Source: Alphaproteobacteria bacterium GM7ARS4 (GTDB lineage Bacteria > Pseudomonadota > Alphaproteobacteria > GM7ARS4). From it: a DNA stretch of 64,000 nucleotides. Every line of letters begins with the position of its first letter. The stretch's first letter is position 1. Position numbers and translations under genes: made by a program. This document shows positions 3,490-57,152 of the stretch, piece by piece. The notes below the pieces were generated by a model that was given only the letters and a program-made list of their open reading frames with translations, made no database searches and was not told where the DNA came from. The DNA lies in assembly GCA_014332745.1 (NCBI GenBank), contig JACONL010000001.1, positions 28,687 to 92,686 of the forward strand, read 5' to 3'.

Positions 3490-5495
3490 AATCCTTGTCC
3501 AAGCGCCTTCGTGTTGCTCTGTATCATGCGCCGATAGCGCGACAACGCCCAAAGAGGAAAATAGACACTATAGCCACGATAGCGCAAATAAAAGACACGC
3601 GGAAATCCCACAGCGGTATAGTCATCTTCCCGCCAACGCCCATCCTCCTCTCGAGGCGCCGCTAAGAGCCATTCAATCCCCCTCTTGACAGCATCGCTAG
3701 AGACTTCATGGGCGGCAATCAACGCCATGATAGCCCACGCTGTCTGTGAAGGTGTGCTGGCCACCACCTCATCTCGTCTCGAAGGCCAATAACTCGCCCC
3801 ACTTTCACCCCACCCGCCATCATCATTCTGGCGGTCACACAACCACTGAACAGCGCGACGAATATAGGGAGACGACATATCCTCAGAAATGGCATGCAAA
3901 CCCGATAAAACAGACCATGTGCCGTAAATATAGTTCGTCCCCCAACGACCAAACCACGAGCCGTCTTCCTCTTGCTCACGCCGTAAAAAGGCGAGGCATC
4001 TAGCGATGACATCGTCTTCCTTCGTATAACCCCTCTGAGCAAGAAAACCTAAACAGCGGGCTGAAACATCAACAGTAGGAGGGTCGCGCAACGCCCCATG
4101 GTCAGCAAACGGAATATAGTCGAGATAGGCACTCGTATTATCGGCATCAAAAGCACCCCATCCGCCATTCTTGCTCTGCATGCCAATAATCCATCTCTCT
4201 GCGCGTTTCAGGGCTGGCTCATAGCGCGGGTCATGCGCCTTGTCTAACGCTATAGCAACAACAGCCGTATCATCAACATCGGGATAATAGTCATTGCCAT
4301 ATTGGAACGCCCACCCCCCCGGCGCAACGTGAGGACGCCTATCACGCCAATCACCTGCCGCCTCACGCACCTCTTTGGAAAGAAGCCACGCCATGCCACG
4401 TTCATGGGACGAAGAGGCAACACCCTCATCCTCGGCCAACGCTAAAAGCGCTAAACTACTATCCCACACAGGAGAGACACACGGCTGGCAAAAACTTTCA
4501 TCCACATCATCAAACACGAGAAGACGCAACGCCTCAAGAGCCTCCTGGTATCGTTCATCGTCCTTCCCATACCCTAACACATCGAGAAGAATAAGAAAAT
4601 TCATCATAGCGGGGAAAATACCGCCTAAACCATCGCGACCATTACGCCTCGCCATAGACCATGCGACCGCCTTGTTGATGGCATGACGGCGTAGGAAGGG
4701 CGGCGAAAAACGCTCGATGCGTCTCACGATGGCGTCAACATAGACAAATAACGCCCCCTGCCACGTCCCGCGATGATTTTTAATATAGGCAACCTTCTCT
4801 CCCTCCTTTTCTACCCTCAATTCTGTCAACGTCACCCCATGGTCGCCTTTGCTTTGTGGCTTCAACGCCATCAAAGCCAAGACCGGCACGAGAACAACCC
4901 GCGACCAATAAGACACCTTCCCTAGAGAAAAAGGACACCATGACGGAAGAAGGACTATCTCCACAGGCATCGACGGCACCGCCTCCCAAGGAAGCACCCC
5001 ATGAAAAGCAAGGGACATGCGCGTGAAAACATTGCATTGGGTGAGTCCTCCCATCGCCCGAATGGCACGGCGCGCATGCGCCATATGCGGCGCATGGATG
5101 TCATCACCCATCAACTTCAAAGCAAAATACGCCTTGACACTGGCGCTGAGGTCCATGTCGCCACCATAATAGAGCGCCCACCCCCCATGCCCCTTACGCT
5201 CCCCACGCTCTCCATGCTCCTCAGGGGACAGCGAACGCGTACGGCGAATATGGCGCGCAAGACGCCCCTCACGCTCTACATCCTTAATCCCTAAATAACG
5301 ATTCATCATAATATATTCAGCAGAAATCGTCACATCAGCCTCCAACGGAAAAACCCAATGGCCATCCCTCTGTTGCTTGGCACGTAAGGCGTTTTTCCCA
5401 CGCTCGATGGCATCGTCAATATGGCGAAAAAATGCTTTCTTATCGCTCACGCTGTCTGACTCCTTGACGAAGAACCAACAGAGGACACAACGCAT
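3486..5495 (-). CDS. shc: Squalene-hopene cyclase
   Basis: 669 aa. DVDDTA catalytic motif (YPDVDDTAVV). Multiple QW repeats (…GGWGE…, …GSWFGRWG…). Confidence 0.95.
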   Translation of the reverse strand: MRCVLCWFFVKESDSVSDKKAFFRHIDDAIERGKNALRAKQQRDGHWVFPLEADVTISAEYIMMNRYLGIKDVEREGRLARHIRRTRSLSPEEHGERGERKGHGGWALYYGGDMDLSASVKAYFALKLMGDDIHAPHMAHARRAIRAMGGLTQCNVFTRMSLAFHGVLPWEAVPSMPVEIVLLPSWCPFSLGKVSYWSRVVLVPVLALMALKPQSKGDHGVTLTELRVEKEGEKVAYIKNHRGTWQGALFVYVDAIVRRIERFSPPFLRRHAINKAVAWSMARRNGRDGLGGIFPAMMNFLILLDVLGYGKDDERYQEALEALRLLVFDDVDESFCQPCVSPVWDSSLALLALAEDEGVASSSHERGMAWLLSKEVREAAGDWRDRRPHVAPGGWAFQYGNDYYPDVDDTAVVAIALDKAHDPRYEPALKRAERWIIGMQSKNGGWGAFDADNTSAYLDYIPFADHGALRDPPTVDVSARCLGFLAQRGYTKEDDVIARCLAFLRREQEEDGSWFGRWGTNYIYGTWSVLSGLHAISEDMSSPYIRRAVQWLCDRQNDDGGWGESGASYWPSRRDEVVASTPSQTAWAIMALIAAHEVSSDAVKRGIEWLLAAPREEDGRWREDDYTAVGFPRVFYLRYRGYSVYFPLWALSRYRRMIQSNTKALGQGL

Positions 5496-6742
5496 GACGC
5501 GGCGCGAAATCCAGACATGATCGCCCCCTCAATGGTCGCTGGCAGTCCCGTATCCGTCCAATCACCTGCTAAAAACATATTGTGCCATGGGGTCTGGGTT
5601 TTGCCTCTCGCATGTTCGTTTTGCGGCGATTGCACAAAGGTTGCTCTCTTCTCACAGAGATAACGATAGGGAGGCATTGTACCGTTTTTCCACCCAAGAG
5701 TCAAAGAGACATCACGCCATAATTGGCGCACAAAAGAGTCCCTCTCCGTTCCCCACGAGTCCTGCACCGCACTGATCGTCACCGACAGATGGTCCTTATG
5801 GCAAAAAAGCCAATGGCCTCTGCTGCCATGCATCCCCACCATAGAGGGAAAAGGTGGAGGCGTGCGCCCCTTTGGTATCAGGAAATGGACATTGATGATA
5901 CCTCGATACCCCTCTGGCACAGACAAGGACGGCAAGACAGCGCGCGCCGCAAAGGGAGGAAGCGCCATGATGACACGCTCCTCTCTGCCAACGGGAACAG
6001 AAAAATTGAGCCCGCATAATGATGACACAAAGCGCCCTTGAAACCCTAACCCCCGCACACGCATCCCACAACGTATGGACGCCCCATGGCGTAGCAAATA
6101 CGCATGAGCTGGCGCGATAAAGCTCGCCCCTAAATTCTCACGCGGATAACATGGACGACAATGAGATGCGCCACGAAAAAACGTCTTCACCAAGACATTC
6201 CATAACAGGCGCATGCTCGCCTTGGACGACTCCGTATTCAGCACGCTCACAGCAAGAGGGTCTATGAACTTCCTAAAAAAGAGCGCATGGGGGGAAAAGA
6301 CATCACTGACGACATGATGTCGCCCATAACATCGATGGCGCGCACACGCCCACAAACAAGACAATAACGTGGATGGCGTCATACCCCATTCCCTCTTCAC
6401 AAACCAGAAGGCTCGACTCTTATCGCCAACGGTCAGACTCTCACAACGCCCCGTGGGGACATCGTAAAAATCAAAACGGCTTTGCTCTTGCACGATGAGC
6501 TCGTCTTGCGCACCCACCATGTTCACATAGCCCATGACATGGTCGTTGCCGCTGAGCACCAAATGACTGCCATTATCGATGGTGATGTTGAGGGTGCTAT
6601 CATGGTAGGAACGACAACGTCCGCCTAAAAAAGGGGACGCTTCATAGAGAAGCACGCGACATCCCTGTGACGCAAGACTCACAGCGGAAGCAAGCCCCGC
6701 CAACCCGCCACCAATAATATGCGCTGTGCCAAGGCATGCCAT
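5447..6742 (-). CDS. hpnE: Hydroxysqualene dehydroxylase HpnE (FAD-dependent amine oxidase family)
   Basis: N-terminal FAD dinucleotide-binding motif IIGGGLAGLASA following M at 6742, so the listed longer ORF is an upstream extension. Squalene-associated FAD-dependent desaturase family. Start abuts the upstream SQS-family gene stop. Confidence 0.85.
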   Translation of the reverse strand: MACLGTAHIIGGGLAGLASAVSLASQGCRVLLYEASPFLGGRCRSYHDSTLNITIDNGSHLVLSGNDHVMGYVNMVGAQDELIVQEQSRFDFYDVPTGRCESLTVGDKSRAFWFVKREWGMTPSTLLSCLWACARHRCYGRHHVVSDVFSPHALFFRKFIDPLAVSVLNTESSKASMRLLWNVLVKTFFRGASHCRPCYPRENLGASFIAPAHAYLLRHGASIRCGMRVRGLGFQGRFVSSLCGLNFSVPVGREERVIMALPPFAARAVLPSLSVPEGYRGIINVHFLIPKGRTPPPFPSMVGMHGSRGHWLFCHKDHLSVTISAVQDSWGTERDSFVRQLWRDVSLTLGWKNGTMPPYRYLCEKRATFVQSPQNEHARGKTQTPWHNMFLAGDWTDTGLPATIEGAIMSGFRAASCVVSSVGSSSRSQTA

Positions 6743-6744
6743 TG

Positions 6745-7626
6745 TCAACGCCCTAAAAGGTAGGCGCGCGCCATATGCATCGCAAGAGCCACATTCGTTG
6801 GCCGCGCCACAGGCTCGAGAGTCGCCCAACCACGCCGACATAACAGCGTCAAAATATCGCCATACACATGGCGCATAAAACGCGCCGGACGCCACATGCG
6901 CCTATGGGCGCTCTGCCAGAATAATTTATCACTCAAAGCAAACGCATCGCGCGCATGAGACACAAGCGCACAGGCAATGGACGGAAAATGCTGTGAGGAA
7001 AAGAGCTGGGACAGAGCCTCACCCGTCAGCCCATAAGGCGCAAGCATCGTCAAAGGGATATACAACCTGCCACGAGCGCCATCTTCCCTGAGGTCACGCA
7101 AGATGTTCGTCAGCTGCAACGCCCTGCCCAGAGCATAGGCATGGCGATAGGCATGCTCAGACGCATCGCCAAAAATATGACTCGAGAGCACACCCACCGC
7201 CCCCGCCACCCTATCACAATAGCGCTCTAACATCGCCATATCCTTCATGCGCACAGAAACACCAATATCCATCTCCATCCCGCGAATAATCTCCATAAAG
7301 GCGTGACGTGGCATGGCATAGCGGGGAATGCTCCATGCCAAGACATGAAAGAGAGGATGGTCACCCGTCTCCCCGCCATATGTCTTCCCGCCATAGAGAA
7401 CATCAAGACGCCGTGACCAGTCTCCTAACCGCCTCAGACGTTCCTGTGTCTCCAGCCCTTCATCATCGACACTATCATCCACATCTCGACAAAAGGCATA
7501 AAGAGCATACATCGCACGCCTCTTGTCTCGAGGAAGACACCGCATGCCCCAATAAAAAGAAGAGCCTGCCTGCCGAACGTAAGAGTCGACCCATTGCTGT
7601 GCCCACGCCTGCTTCTGTGTATCCAT
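6745..7626 (-). CDS. hpnD: Squalene/phytoene-synthase family protein (presqualene diphosphate synthase HpnD or hydroxysqualene synthase HpnC)
   Basis: Trans-isoprenyl diphosphate synthase head-to-head family motifs (YAFCRDVDD, NILRDLRED). ATG at 7626 (MDTQKQ) is more plausible than the GTG at 7650. The gene lies between hpnE and ispA. Confidence 0.75.
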   Translation of the reverse strand: MDTQKQAWAQQWVDSYVRQAGSSFYWGMRCLPRDKRRAMYALYAFCRDVDDSVDDEGLETQERLRRLGDWSRRLDVLYGGKTYGGETGDHPLFHVLAWSIPRYAMPRHAFMEIIRGMEMDIGVSVRMKDMAMLERYCDRVAGAVGVLSSHIFGDASEHAYRHAYALGRALQLTNILRDLREDGARGRLYIPLTMLAPYGLTGEALSQLFSSQHFPSIACALVSHARDAFALSDKLFWQSAHRRMWRPARFMRHVYGDILTLLCRRGWATLEPVARPTNVALAMHMARAYLLGR

Positions 7627-41824: not shown

Positions 41825-41851
41825 GATTATCCTCCTCTCATGAGTCGTCTC

Positions 41852-42277
41852 TCATGCGCCTTCTCTGGCGCCTTCTCTGGCGCCTTCTCTGGCGCCTTCT
41901 CTGGCGCCTTCTCTGGCGCCTTCTCTGGTGTCAGCGCCAATGGTCGTCTCGTCATCCTTGACATGGTCCATAGCATCCACATCGACATAACGTGGATTTA
42001 AACGAAAAAGAGCGACAACGAGCGCTAAACCAATGGCCGCTTCCGCCGCCGCAACCGTCAAAATGAAAATCCCCGCCACATGCCCAAAAATGTCGGCCCT
42101 GTTGTAAGAAAAGACAGCAAAATTCATGATGACCGCCAACATAGAGAGCTCCAGACACAACAGCATGAAAATGACTTGACGGCGATTCACAACAATCCCC
42201 CACACGCCAATAATAAACAGCATGGTGGACACAATAAGGTAATGCTCTGTCCCAATAACATAAGGATACATTGTCAC
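41852..42277 (-). CDS. nuoK: NADH-quinone oxidoreductase subunit K with ~40 aa C-terminal extension containing (REGA)x6
   Basis: Conserved NuoK 3-TM core (…GHVAGIFILTVAAAEAAIGLALVV…). The tail is encoded by a 12-nt tandem repeat. Confidence 0.85.
   Translation of the reverse strand: MTMYPYVIGTEHYLIVSTMLFIIGVWGIVVNRRQVIFMLLCLELSMLAVIMNFAVFSYNRADIFGHVAGIFILTVAAAEAAIGLALVVALFRLNPRYVDVDAMDHVKDDETTIGADTREGAREGAREGAREGAREGAREGA
41856..41929. repeat. 12-nt tandem repeat (gcgccttctctg)x6 in nuoK 3' end
   Basis: Direct inspection. Encodes (REGA)x6 on the minus strand. Confidence 0.85.
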
Positions 42278-54018: not shown

Positions 54019-54633
54019 ATGTCTTATCAATCCCCCATGACCCAAACGGCAGATTTTTTCGACATGCCTCTCCCTGCTGAGGACCCGTCGGCGTTCCTCT
54101 CATCATTTCGAGAGACGTGGCATGATATTTGCAAGACGATGGCACACCATGATATTCTTGCGTCCTCTGAGGAGGAGAGCCAGAGAGCGGGACACGCGAC
54201 AACACAGCATATGATCCATGCCTCTGAGGAAGCATTGCTCTATCCTTTATCCCTACGCCACATCATCGAGGACGAAGCGATGATAGTGAGCGATGCCCGA
54301 GAACGTATTTATCGCGCTTTTCGCCAAAGTTTTTCCTTTGGCGCGGCGCGCTACCGCCACCATCTGAGGACTCTGCTGAAGGATAAGGGACGCTCGATAA
54401 CGTTCAACAATGCGCGCCAGATCACCCGTGACTTCGACACGAAAATGCACGCCATCCAAAAAACCTTCGAAAGCCACGTGAAAGATATTGTGTGCTATTC
54501 AGAAGACCATCCCATCCACCCACGGGCAACCCAAACCCTCAGCGGCCAAGAGATTATCCATGCCTATGAACATTATAAAATCTCCATGAGCGTCATACAG
54601 AGACTCCTCTCACAGATAGAAGACGCCTCCTAA
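54019..54633 (+). CDS. Hypothetical protein, no recognisable family; stop codon 3 nt upstream of the CRISPR-like array
   Basis: 204-aa ORF with protein-like composition, preceded by an AT-rich stretch. No conserved motifs recognised. Confidence 0.4.
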   Translation: MSYQSPMTQTADFFDMPLPAEDPSAFLSSFRETWHDICKTMAHHDILASSEEESQRAGHATTQHMIHASEEALLYPLSLRHIIEDEAMIVSDARERIYRAFRQSFSFGAARYRHHLRTLLKDKGRSITFNNARQITRDFDTKMHAIQKTFESHVKDIVCYSEDHPIHPRATQTLSGQEIIHAYEHYKISMSVIQRLLSQIEDAS

Positions 54634-54636
54634 GAA

Positions 54637-54871
54637 ACAACAGCCTCCCTGTGTTTGAACGGGCTCTATAGAAGACGGGTAAATGAATAAACCCTAAACC
54701 ACGTGCGACGCTCCCTGTGTTTGAACGGGCTCTATAGAGACGATACATCACATGGATAACTTTCAGGGGTGCGACGCTCCCTGTGTTTGAACGGGCTCTA
54801 TAGAGGTATGGCAGTAGATAAGACAGGACTAGAAGTGCGACGCTCCCTGTGTTTGAACGGGCTCTATAGAG
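54637..54871. CRISPR. Mini CRISPR-like array: four 37-nt direct repeats (GTGCGACGCTCCCTGTGTTTGAACGGGCTCTATAGAG; three identical at 54703-54739, 54769-54805, 54835-54871 plus a degenerate terminal copy at 54637-54673) separated by three unique 29-nt spacers
   Basis: Repeats and spacers were aligned by eye. Spacers are unique, equal in length, and about 41% GC. The last repeat overlaps the stop codon of the adjacent tnpB-like gene. Confidence 0.75.
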
Positions 54872-56105
54872 TTGCTCCCGCCAAACGTCCTGTTTGCAGG
54901 ACGTCAAGGGCTTCCTTCTCTTGCGAGAAGTGGCTCACGCCGAGCCGTAGGATATTTCTGGCGGCGTTTTCATCTCGGTCGATGGTCAGTCCACACACAT
55001 GACAATGGTGTGTCCTCTCATCTAACGATTTTTCTACAACCGCCCCACATCCCGAGCATTTTTGGGATGTGCCTCTTGGGTCAACCTGCACAAAATGCTT
55101 ACCAGCTTCTTCCGCTTTGTAAGCAACTTTTCCTATGAAGGCAGCCCATCCCTTATCATGGATTGATTTCGCCAAGCGGTGATTTCTTGCCATATTGGCT
55201 ATCCTCAGGTCCTCAAAAACAAGAAGGTCAAATCTCTTCACGAATTCCCTTGCGAGTTTATGATGAAAATCCTTGCGCTGATGGCTCACTTTGCTATGCC
55301 ATTTCTGCACGGCGCGCAAGGCGCGTCGCCACCGACATGTGCCCCTTTTGGCGGCGGAGAGCGCTTGCTGTTTTCTTGCCAGCGTCTTCTCTGCCTCGCG
55401 ATACCAGTTCGGACTATCAAACGACTCGCCTTTATCTGTCATCACGAAGCTCTTAATCCCCACATCACACCCCACGGCATGTTTTACCTCACCCTTAGGC
55501 ATAGGGGTAGGCGCGTCACCGATACATGCTCTCACAAACAGGCGATAGCCTTTAGGCGTATGCTTGATGGTGCAGTCACAAAGTGTTGCGTCCTCTGGCA
55601 TGATATTATGGCGCGCCATGTTCGTTCTCATACCCCCTCGCACGCCTTTCACAAAAAGACGTCCTTCCTTTAGCCTATAGCTTTCGGTTATCTCGATGGA
55701 TTTCCAGCGCCGCCATCCCTTAAAACGAGGGAAACCCGGCGTCTGCCCCGCCTTCACCCGACGAAAAAACCCCTTGAGAGCCTTGTTCACCCGCGCCAAT
55801 GCCCCTCGTTGCATTGTCACAGACATCCACGCACAAGCACAATCCTTGTCTTGCCTTATCTCTGTGAGGCTCTTATTTTGGTCATAGAGGGTGATGGTCT
55901 TGCCTGTCTTGCGATAGCACTCTATCCGCTCCTGCAAGGCGGCGTTATATAAATCGCGCGTGAAATTGAAAAAGGCGCGCAACACTTTCGCCTGCTTTTT
56001 CGTAGGATAGAGCCTGTATTCATACGTGCGATGCATCGCCGTTGTTTCCGCGTCTGTTTCCATGTCGCGCTCCTGCCGTGTCCCCCACCCATAATGACTC
56101 GACAC
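54864..56105 (-). CDS. tnpB: TnpB-like RNA-guided endonuclease (IS200/IS605 OrfB family / Cas12-like), intact RuvC-I/II/III and zinc finger; probable start at 56036 (MHRTYEYRLYPT)
   Basis: N-terminal YEYRLYPTKKQAKVL OrfB motif. RuvC-I (VGCDVGIKSF) and RuvC-II (LVFEDLRIANM). Zn finger CSGCG…CHVCG. RuvC-III (DRDENAARNI). Confidence 0.85.
   Translation of the reverse strand: MSSHYGWGTRQERDMETDAETTAMHRTYEYRLYPTKKQAKVLRAFFNFTRDLYNAALQERIECYRKTGKTITLYDQNKSLTEIRQDKDCACAWMSVTMQRGALARVNKALKGFFRRVKAGQTPGFPRFKGWRRWKSIEITESYRLKEGRLFVKGVRGGMRTNMARHNIMPEDATLCDCTIKHTPKGYRLFVRACIGDAPTPMPKGEVKHAVGCDVGIKSFVMTDKGESFDSPNWYREAEKTLARKQQALSAAKRGTCRWRRALRAVQKWHSKVSHQRKDFHHKLAREFVKRFDLLVFEDLRIANMARNHRLAKSIHDKGWAAFIGKVAYKAEEAGKHFVQVDPRGTSQKCSGCGAVVEKSLDERTHHCHVCGLTIDRDENAARNILRLGVSHFSQEKEALDVLQTGRLAGATL
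54885..54904 (-). other. Perfect 8-bp inverted repeat (ACGTCCTG-TTTG-CAGGACGT) inside the tnpB 3' end, candidate guide-RNA scaffold hairpin
   Basis: Direct inspection. Located 14 nt from the first array repeat. Confidence 0.3.
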
Positions 56106-56231: not shown

Positions 56232-57152
56232 ATGCCCGTTCCTCCTTCCTATGGCAAGATTACAGGCTATGAACGAGACATCCGTGTCCAATCGGACAAC
56301 GGCAACCTTGCCTTTCAACCATCAAAACGAACAACAAAAGGGACGTTTGTCGCCTTGCGACGCTTCTTCGGACGCAAAATCTCCTTCGTCACCCATGGAT
56401 TGACAAAAAAGGGACGCAAGCCAACCCTCCCCCCACGCTCCCAAAGTGCCATATCACCAAAAAAACTCCTCTCCCCCCACGATAGCCGAGTCGCTATCTC
56501 TCACCAACTGACACACCATTTTCGACGCGCCATCGACCAACACAGACGCGCCATCGAACAGTGGAGCGACGATACAAAGAACTTGAAGAAACATGCCGCA
56601 AAAGCACTCCCAAAAGGCATATCAAAAGACCAACTCGACCAGTGGCACGACACCACCGAAACCCTGCGAAGAGAGGTGTTGAAAGAAAACTCGACAAAGA
56701 CATTCGACCAGCATGCGCAAAAATTAAACGACGCCCTAGACGACACCATCAAGAGTCACCTCCTGCAAATTAACCCTGACACAGGCGATGTCTCGCGCAA
56801 ATCCCTCAAAGGCAGACAGATGTACGACGTCTATCAGCAATTTACACACTCCCTCGCTATCCTCGACTCCGTCGCCCAGAATATCCAAAAATCGCTCAAC
56901 ATACCATCACGCCAATTACCTAAACCGCCCCAAGATTATGTCAGCCCACGTTCCCTGAAAGACGGCGGATATGAAGACAGAAGCAGCTGGGTTGACGATA
57001 ACAAGGACTATGTCCCTCTCAATCCCGCCACACGCAACCGAAAGGCACAGACAACAGATTACGAACCCCTCACACCCCGTATCCTCGACCAGCAAGCAAC
57101 GTCCCAAGGGAACGCCTCCGCCACGACTGAACGTAAGAGTGACAAGAGCTAG
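56232..57152 (+). CDS. Hypothetical protein (Lys/Ser/Thr-rich, no recognisable domain)
   Basis: 306-aa ORF divergent from tnpB. No motifs recognised. Confidence 0.35.
   Translation: MPVPPSYGKITGYERDIRVQSDNGNLAFQPSKRTTKGTFVALRRFFGRKISFVTHGLTKKGRKPTLPPRSQSAISPKKLLSPHDSRVAISHQLTHHFRRAIDQHRRAIEQWSDDTKNLKKHAAKALPKGISKDQLDQWHDTTETLRREVLKENSTKTFDQHAQKLNDALDDTIKSHLLQINPDTGDVSRKSLKGRQMYDVYQQFTHSLAILDSVAQNIQKSLNIPSRQLPKPPQDYVSPRSLKDGGYEDRSSWVDDNKDYVPLNPATRNRKAQTTDYEPLTPRILDQQATSQGNASATTERKSDKS

Follow-up and report, generated by a model that had tools for sequence, protein, structure and literature searches.

What is the short run of direct repeats and unique inserts that begins inside the end of a tnpB gene in this chromosome, from which strand is it read, and what would use it? 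The first-pass annotation described a small CRISPR-like array at 54637-54871 of the window, that is, of the whole 64,000-nt stretch of DNA analyzed here, and proposed two opposite polarities for it. One was minus-strand transcription coming from tnpB, suggested by a degenerate terminal repeat. The other was transcription on the plus strand, suggested by a palindrome next to each spacer. Comparison of the locus with related tnpB loci and with known RNA-guided systems makes it quite probable that the locus is a mini CRISPR array linked to TnpB and derived from omega-RNA, of the type V-U*/TranC kind, and that tnpB and the array are read together, on the minus strand.

The array is built from a 37-nt repeat present four times, at 54637-54673, 54703-54739, 54769-54805 and 54835-54871, with exactly 66 nt from one start to the next. 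The copies starting at 54703, 54769 and 54835 are 100% identical, whereas the copy at 54637 has 78% identity, with seven of its first eight plus-strand bases changed and its final G replaced by A. Read in the sense of tnpB on the minus strand, repeat 1 (54835-54871), the tnpB-proximal copy, is CTCTATAGAGCCCGTTCAAACACAGGGAGCGTCGCAC; the final 8 nt of tnpB, stop codon included, lie within it. Repeats 2 (54769-54805) and 3 (54703-54739) are identical to it. In the terminal degenerate repeat (54637-54673), it is the last eight sense nucleotides, those adjacent to the guide, that are diverged, and the first base is T. A convergent ORF (54019-54633) has its stop codon 3 nt from the end of this copy. 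The repeats are separated by three spacers of 29 nt each: spacer 1 at 54806-54834, spacer 2 at 54740-54768 and spacer 3 at 54674-54702, which read TTCTAGTCCTGTCTTATCTACTGCCATAC, CCCTGAAAGTTATCCATGTGATGTATCGT and GTGGTTTAGGGTTTATTCATTTACCCGTC, respectively, in the minus-strand sense. The spacers are mutually dissimilar, with 5-11 matches in 29 positions. With four repeats and three spacers, the locus falls within the generic description of a CRISPR array, namely at least three direct repeats of 23-50 nt separated by unique spacers of similar length.

The alignment and the 66-nt period thus bear out the first description of a four-copy array with three identical repeats and one degenerate repeat, as do shuffled sequences: the window contains four copies of a 28-nt core of the repeat, where 100 shuffles give an expectation of 0.00. 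No second repeat-spacer array was found across the 64-kb window, leaving 54637-54871 as the sole one. The first-pass annotation had named dispersed copies without unique inserts, as in a REP-like or other intergenic repeat, as the observation that would speak against an array. The repeat contains a small hairpin, as such an element might, and nothing further recommends that explanation. The repeat is confined to the array: its sole copies across the 64 kb are the four in 66-nt phase, separated by unique inserts, and it has no match in phage or plasmid collections. A REP-like origin can for practical purposes be set aside.

The adjoining tnpB gene lies at 54864-56063 on the minus strand and encodes 399 amino acids as called in the source metagenome (protein P0001), with a TAG stop codon at 54864-54866. 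Alternative starts are a GTG at 56105 and an ATG at 56036 (MHRTYEY..., the start used by the homologs). P0001 contains the Pfam domains HTH_OrfB_IS605 (PF12323), OrfB_IS605 (PF01385) and Cas12f1-like_TNB (PF07282), and has the architecture of TnpB: an HTH/WED-REC region, a split RuvC domain and a zinc-ribbon TNB domain. It scores 263.6 bits against the NCBIfam guided_TnpB model, which has a cut-off of 100, and aligns over its full length with ISDra2 TnpB (8H1J; E 9e-51). Residues D200, E284 and D364 are invariant in an alignment with the 15 closest homologs (alignment A1) and align to the catalytic D/E/D of the ISDra2 motifs GVDVG, TEHL and DRDENAA. The AlphaFold model has a mean pLDDT of 83.7, and its best PDB fold is likewise 8H1J (TM 0.73/0.79), with lower scores for LaTranC (0.67/0.57) and Cas12f (approximately 0.63/0.60). 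P0001 stays below the NCBIfam cut-offs for C2c8 (V-U2; 105 versus 350) and Cas12f2 (57.5 versus 450), and the PADLOC Cas12f and Cas12u models match it at E 1e-43 to 1e-49. The effector in the window is an ISDra2-like TnpB with intact RuvC D/E/D residues, nearest in both sequence and fold to classical TnpB and to no named Cas12. It is a singleton, seen in apparently one assembly, and its nearest relatives in the searched database are at most 50% identical. Its last 15 residues (385-399), encoded just upstream of the array, have a pLDDT below 50.

The neighborhood of tnpB and the array is ordinary chromosome, with genes for hopanoid and cobalamin biosynthesis, an RND pump, a nuo operon and tRNA-Asp. 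At the 3' end of a nuoK-like ORF (41852-42277, minus strand) there is a 12-nt unit, TCTCTGGCGCCT, in about eight tandem copies (41838-41945). The tnpB-array block occurs once within the window and is bordered by exbB-exbD-tonB on one side and by pqqBCDE on the other. Immediately flanking the unit are two plus-strand ORFs, 54019-54633 (204 aa) and 56232-57152 (306 aa), both on the strand opposite to the exbB and pqqE neighbors. Both ORFs gave sub-threshold matches only in Pfam and none in NCBIfam or PADLOC. The 3.1-kb block around tnpB and the array may be an inserted island. A search of the window ORFs with Pfam, chiefly those of at least approximately 140 aa, a size below which a short cas2 could escape, revealed no cas1, cas2, cas4 or other cas genes. 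Cas genes are also absent from the annotation of the source contig (L001), which overlaps the window, and no tnpA of the Y1 or serine type was found in the 64 kb.

Thirteen of the closest relatives of P0001 were traced to their contigs. An array is located directly after the stop codon of tnpB, on the gene strand, in five lineages, including the window and the probable case of L085 (P0004), whose contig stops within the first repeat-like sequence. L002 and L003 (P0002) contain three clear units and a fourth that is more degenerate. L168, L169 and L170 (P0123) have an array downstream of tnpB on the gene strand, and L174 (P0014) has five units, the distal three at 90-92% identity. The repeats are 37-39 nt long with a period of 66-67 nt in the array-bearing lineages. 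Six lineages lack an array (L084, L086, L087, L171, L173 and L175/L176), and L172 was counted neither as array-bearing nor as array-less. The genomic neighbors of the related tnpB loci are different in each case, and gene and array therefore travel as a unit. The link between array and TnpB is conserved in the P0001, P0002, P0123 and P0014 lineages, and probably in P0004; the type V-U* description asks for at least two clusters. Among the matches listed for more distant TnpB loci, which provided a background set (30-45% identity; 80 loci from genomes and 80 from metagenomes), a linked array was found in 0 of 160.

In a rough neighbor-joining tree, array-bearing and array-less lineages are interleaved and P0001 forms a lone deep branch. 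The tree is equally compatible with repeated gain and with repeated loss of arrays. The unit length of 66-67 nt is common to the arrays of the window, L002, L169 and L174 despite their diverged repeats, which hints at a common ruler or common ancestry. The L002 locus has some peculiarities of its own. Its fourth repeat (6340-6378) is strongly degenerate, with the central hairpin rebuilt from a different sequence (GCCCC..GGGC), and 21-nt and 15-nt tandem repeats (6563-6730 and 6762-6878) occupy part of a DUF2730-like gene located downstream of the array and the DNA immediately following that gene.

The nature of the repeat emerges from two of these relatives. L174 (2606-3055) and L175 (1592-1780) share approximately 88% identity over a stretch that starts at the RuvC-III codons and runs through a 37-nt module, AGGTGAGC.CACCTCCAAAAACGGAGT.GTGCTTACCC, and the similarity stops exactly at the 3' end of that module. 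The module is present once in L175 and L176 and five times in L174, where unique inserts of 28-29 nt lie between the copies. The repeat thus corresponds to the terminal module of the omega-RNA scaffold, and the spacer occupies the guide position. Judged from their sequences, L175 and L174 would be a before-and-after snapshot of array formation. The single-guide state is found in the array-less relatives L175, L171 and L084. The window departs from a single-guide omega-RNA, in which the guide is set by the transposon right end, by having the module four times and three guides. The repeats of the different lineages are homologous. Those of the window and L169 have 23 ungapped matches in common, a number reached by 0 of 20,000 shuffles, and both contain a CCC..TTCAAA.ACAGGG hairpin region and a GC....CAC tail (alignment A3).

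Covariation places the repeat within the scaffold. The 5' part of the P0002-clade repeat (CCCCCTGC) forms a stem with GCAGGGGG, which lies in the 3' end of the tnpB coding sequence. Where this clade has GCAGGGGG/CCCCCTGC, the array-less L171 has GCAGTAG/CTACTGC, such that the stem covaries, and so does the neighboring hairpin (CCGTG/CACGG in the P0002 clade versus CCTTG/CAAGG in L171). The 5' part of the repeat is therefore one strand of a scaffold stem, the partner of which is present in a single copy upstream, in the 3' end of tnpB. In the window, the corresponding 3' end of tnpB, between the RuvC-III DRD codons and the array (54872-54980, minus strand), is presumed, by analogy, to be the upstream omega-RNA scaffold, acting in cis for unit 1 and in a tracrRNA-like manner for units 2 and 3. 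It folds with a z of -3.4, with hairpins at 54915-54930 and 54885-54904, and the DRD motif and the end of repeat 1 are approximately 146 nt apart, compared to approximately 143 nt in L002.

Duplex search, folding and covariation assigned no anti-repeat to the window's own repeat, for which no relative is close enough. A duplex-energy search across the tnpB locus of the window yielded two candidates, neither conserved in L002, and both were set aside. The best complementarity to the repeat is at 56005-56039 (minus strand, in the 5' end of tnpB), at about -32 kcal/mol versus about -26 for the next best. It consists of GGCUCUAU:AUAGAGCC (8 bp) and GCGAUGC:GCGUCGC (7 bp), and may be due to chance. 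The other, a complement of 12 in 13 positions at approximately 55317-55329, is of a kind expected about twice by chance according to a rough estimate. Transfer of a covariance model of the P0002-clade scaffold to the window was rejected because the two share no sequence outside the repeat, and Rfam, at gathering and permissive thresholds, returned nothing at the locus. Elsewhere, L165 contains an exact 45-nt tandem duplication (3586-3675; 98% identity) that has no spacer and starts approximately 6 nt past a distant TnpB match. It may represent a first-step duplication of an omega-RNA end plus guide.

The relatives also bear on whether the array could be an orphan of an unrelated CRISPR-Cas system, beside which tnpB was inserted by chance. 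Such adjacency does occur. At L044 4307-4523 and L011 4934-5431, distant TnpB genes lie 150-860 nt from apparently ordinary host CRISPR arrays, one with an approximately 29-nt type I-E-like repeat and the other with a 30-nt GTTTCAAT... repeat. The situation in the window is of another kind: the first repeat overlaps the tnpB stop codon rather than lying at a distance from it, homologous repeats accompany homologous tnpB genes in unrelated contexts, and the repeat is homologous to the terminal module of an omega-RNA. No other cas genes were found in the 64 kb that could have belonged to a separate system. An orphan array is thus very unlikely.

The same module indicates the direction of reading. 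To judge from sequence comparison, the most likely reading of the array is on the minus strand, starting from tnpB. The initial suggestion that the degenerate copy marks the leader-distal end, and with it a minus-strand reading, holds in the relatives, whose arrays are downstream of tnpB and co-oriented with it. Degenerate copies are gene-distal in the window, L002, L168, L169 and L174. Moreover, in single-guide relatives (L175) the sense-strand omega-RNA has the homologous module at its 3' end. Scans for promoter and terminator consensus sequences gave counts no higher than those in shuffled sequences and were uninformative on polarity.

The opposite polarity, in which the array would be transcribed on the plus strand and the palindrome would form a Cas12a-like hairpin handle beside the guide, starts from a real feature. 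On the plus strand, the three identical repeats end in a perfect 10-nt palindrome, CTCTATAGAG, which abuts each spacer as first described; in the degenerate copy the palindrome is broken (CTCTATAGAA). Transcription from the convergent ORF at 54019-54633 could also read through into the array. However, the palindrome folds at most into a 3-bp stem, which is dropped from the centroid structure, and it is absent from the homologous repeats (alignment A3). In the repeat at 54835-54871 it contains the TAG stop codon of tnpB and is simply the end of the ORF. Fold predictions of the repeat alone in both orientations were no better than shuffles (z -0.9 to +0.55) and did not discriminate between the strands; the repeat itself has a z of +0.55 on the plus strand and -0.23 on the minus strand. 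A plus-strand reading would also place the degenerate copy at the leader end and run against the sense-strand position of the homologous module in L175. Finally, the effector is TnpB-like and 399 aa long, whereas Cas12a has approximately 1,200-1,300 aa. Plus-strand transcription with a Cas12a-type handle is highly improbable.

TnpB is an RNA-guided nuclease that uses RNA derived from the transposon right end (PMC8612924) and processes its own mRNA into omega-RNA (PMC10278001). For a minus-strand array derived from omega-RNA, a plausible mechanism is that the tnpB transcript runs on into the array, such that gene and array would be co-transcribed. The 3' end of the ORF (54872-54980) together with repeat 1 would constitute a complete omega-RNA scaffold in cis, with spacer 1 as the 3' guide. 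Units 2 and 3, containing the terminal module only, would pair with an upstream scaffold supplied in trans, similar to a tracrRNA. TnpB would trim the RNA, and the resulting complex would cut DNA that matches the guide beside a short TAM/PAM motif. The fourth, degenerate repeat would be the old, non-functional far end of the array.

The spacers provide limited information on what such a complex might target. No match to the three window spacers was found in viral contigs as exact 29-mers or 20-mers, in phage and plasmid collections by blastn, or, with up to 6 mismatches allowed, within the window; target searches with two spacers from relatives were equally empty. Inspection of the spacer ends revealed no TAM-like motif common to them. 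The first-pass annotation put the spacers at about 41% GC, against much higher GC in the flanking genes, and took this as a sign of foreign origin. The first figure stands, as each spacer has 12 G or C in 29 positions (41.4%), but the contrast is modest: the flanks and neighboring genes are at 51-52% and the whole window at 52.5%, and an AT content as high as that of the pooled spacers occurs in only approximately 3% of 87-nt segments. This slight enrichment in AT over the genome is a weak hint at foreign origin; the target searches yielded no protospacer, and the GC content of spacers in the relatives varies from 29 to 71%.

Spacer content can be compared directly in the P0123 lineage. L168, L169 and L170, from three samples, encode an identical protein fragment, and the flanking DNA of L168 and L169 is a single SNP apart. 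The arrays are R-Sa-Rdeg in L168, R-Sb-R-Sa-Rdeg in L169 and R-Sb-R-Sc-(contig end) in L170. Collapse of repeats during assembly could explain the difference between L168 and L169, but not the L170 arrangement, so spacer content truly varies in this family. In the same lineage, tnpB has the same +1 frameshift in L168 and L169 (a 1-nt insertion versus L002, by alignment), and the tnpB gene call is split in all three contigs (L168 115-1240, L169 235-1360 and L170 73-753). Such arrays can therefore outlive the gene.

This raises the question of whether the array in the window is itself a decaying relic that arose from duplications of an IS right end and fell out of use, with only unit 1 working as an omega-RNA, or nothing at all. 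The array is very short, with three spacers; neither targets (in viral contigs, phages, plasmids or the window) nor adaptation genes (in the window ORFs scanned) were found, and an anti-repeat was not identified. The P0123 lineage, with its arrays retained beside a frameshifted tnpB, provides a precedent. Against decay stand the 100% identity of three repeats and the exact 29-nt length of the spacers. The tnpB ORF in the window is intact and retains the catalytic D/E/D, spacer content differs among related contigs, and the association recurs in several lineages while 0 of 160 distant loci, among the matches listed, have it. A relic is an improbable explanation of the locus.

The closest known relative of the effector is the TnpB/OMEGA system of ISDra2 (IS200/IS605; PDB 8H1J and 8EXA; PMC8612924, PMC10097598), which has the same size, domain order and catalytic D/E/D. 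Overlap of the guide-RNA scaffold with the 3' end of the gene and a guide at the 3' end are likewise ISDra2-like traits. In ISDra2, however, a single omega-RNA carries a single guide, determined by the right end of the transposon, and the element is a mobile IS with TnpA, whereas the window has the terminal module four times, three 29-nt guides and no tnpA in 64 kb. TnpB-like genes with downstream arrays, mostly without cas1/2, have been described from approximately 50 independent origins and designated V-U6 to V-U45 (Altae-Tran et al. 2023, PMC10691335), with duplication of omega-RNA segments proposed as the source of these arrays (PMC10691335). The window shares with type V-U* a TnpB-like protein, a short downstream array, an association present in at least two clusters and the absence of adaptation genes. 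The comparison with V-U6 to V-U45 is by class description.

TranC systems have a split omega-RNA and 3-20 repeats of 32-38 bp, and some have TnpB-sized effectors, in clades 3 and 9, including CauTranC9 (bioRxiv 10.64898/2026.03.27.714800). The split of the omega-RNA into tracrRNA and crRNA has been described (PMC13565253; bioRxiv 10.64898/2026.03.27.714800), and TranC is presented as an intermediate between transposon and CRISPR systems by Jin et al. (2025 Cell, as cited in PMC13565253). The window resembles TranC in its TnpB-sized effector without cas1/cas2 nearby, its short downstream array and, by way of its relatives, a repeat derived from the omega-RNA 3' end. LaTranC (9JFO/9JFQ), the only solved TranC, matches P0001 only in the C-terminal RuvC part (E 2e-20), with a TM below that of TnpB. 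The likeness to TranC clades is one of features. Cas12f and Cas12n (V-F and V-U4) are likewise small RuvC effectors beside arrays. The tracrRNA of Cas12n is encoded in the region of an unstructured C-terminal tail (bioRxiv 10.64898/2026.03.27.714800), and this region resembles the low-pLDDT tail of P0001. [quoted passage not shown]

It is tempting to go further and propose that an ISDra2-like TnpB subfamily repeatedly builds multi-guide arrays, with a fixed unit of approximately 66 nt, from the omega-RNA module at its right end and exchanges spacers without Cas1-Cas2, and that the locus in the window is an active 399-aa multi-guide nuclease at the transition from OMEGA to CRISPR. This proposal is speculative and rather doubtful in its full extent. 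If true, it would imply non-canonical insertion of spacers, for example by TnpA acting with the right end, or by recombination, and the nuclease in the window, with its unexpanded domains, would have been caught in the middle of the OMEGA-to-CRISPR transition.

The locus has the features of the V-U*/TranC class, a concept that is known (V-U* in 2023, TranC in 2025), and it overturns no existing view. To this class, in which compact genome editors are now being sought, it adds an apparently intact TnpB of very small size (399 aa) with a native multi-guide array. Finally, the comparison of L175, with its single guide, and L174, with five units, together with the variable spacers of the family, bears on how CRISPR arrays are born from the guide RNAs of transposons and on how spacers may be added without Cas1-Cas2.
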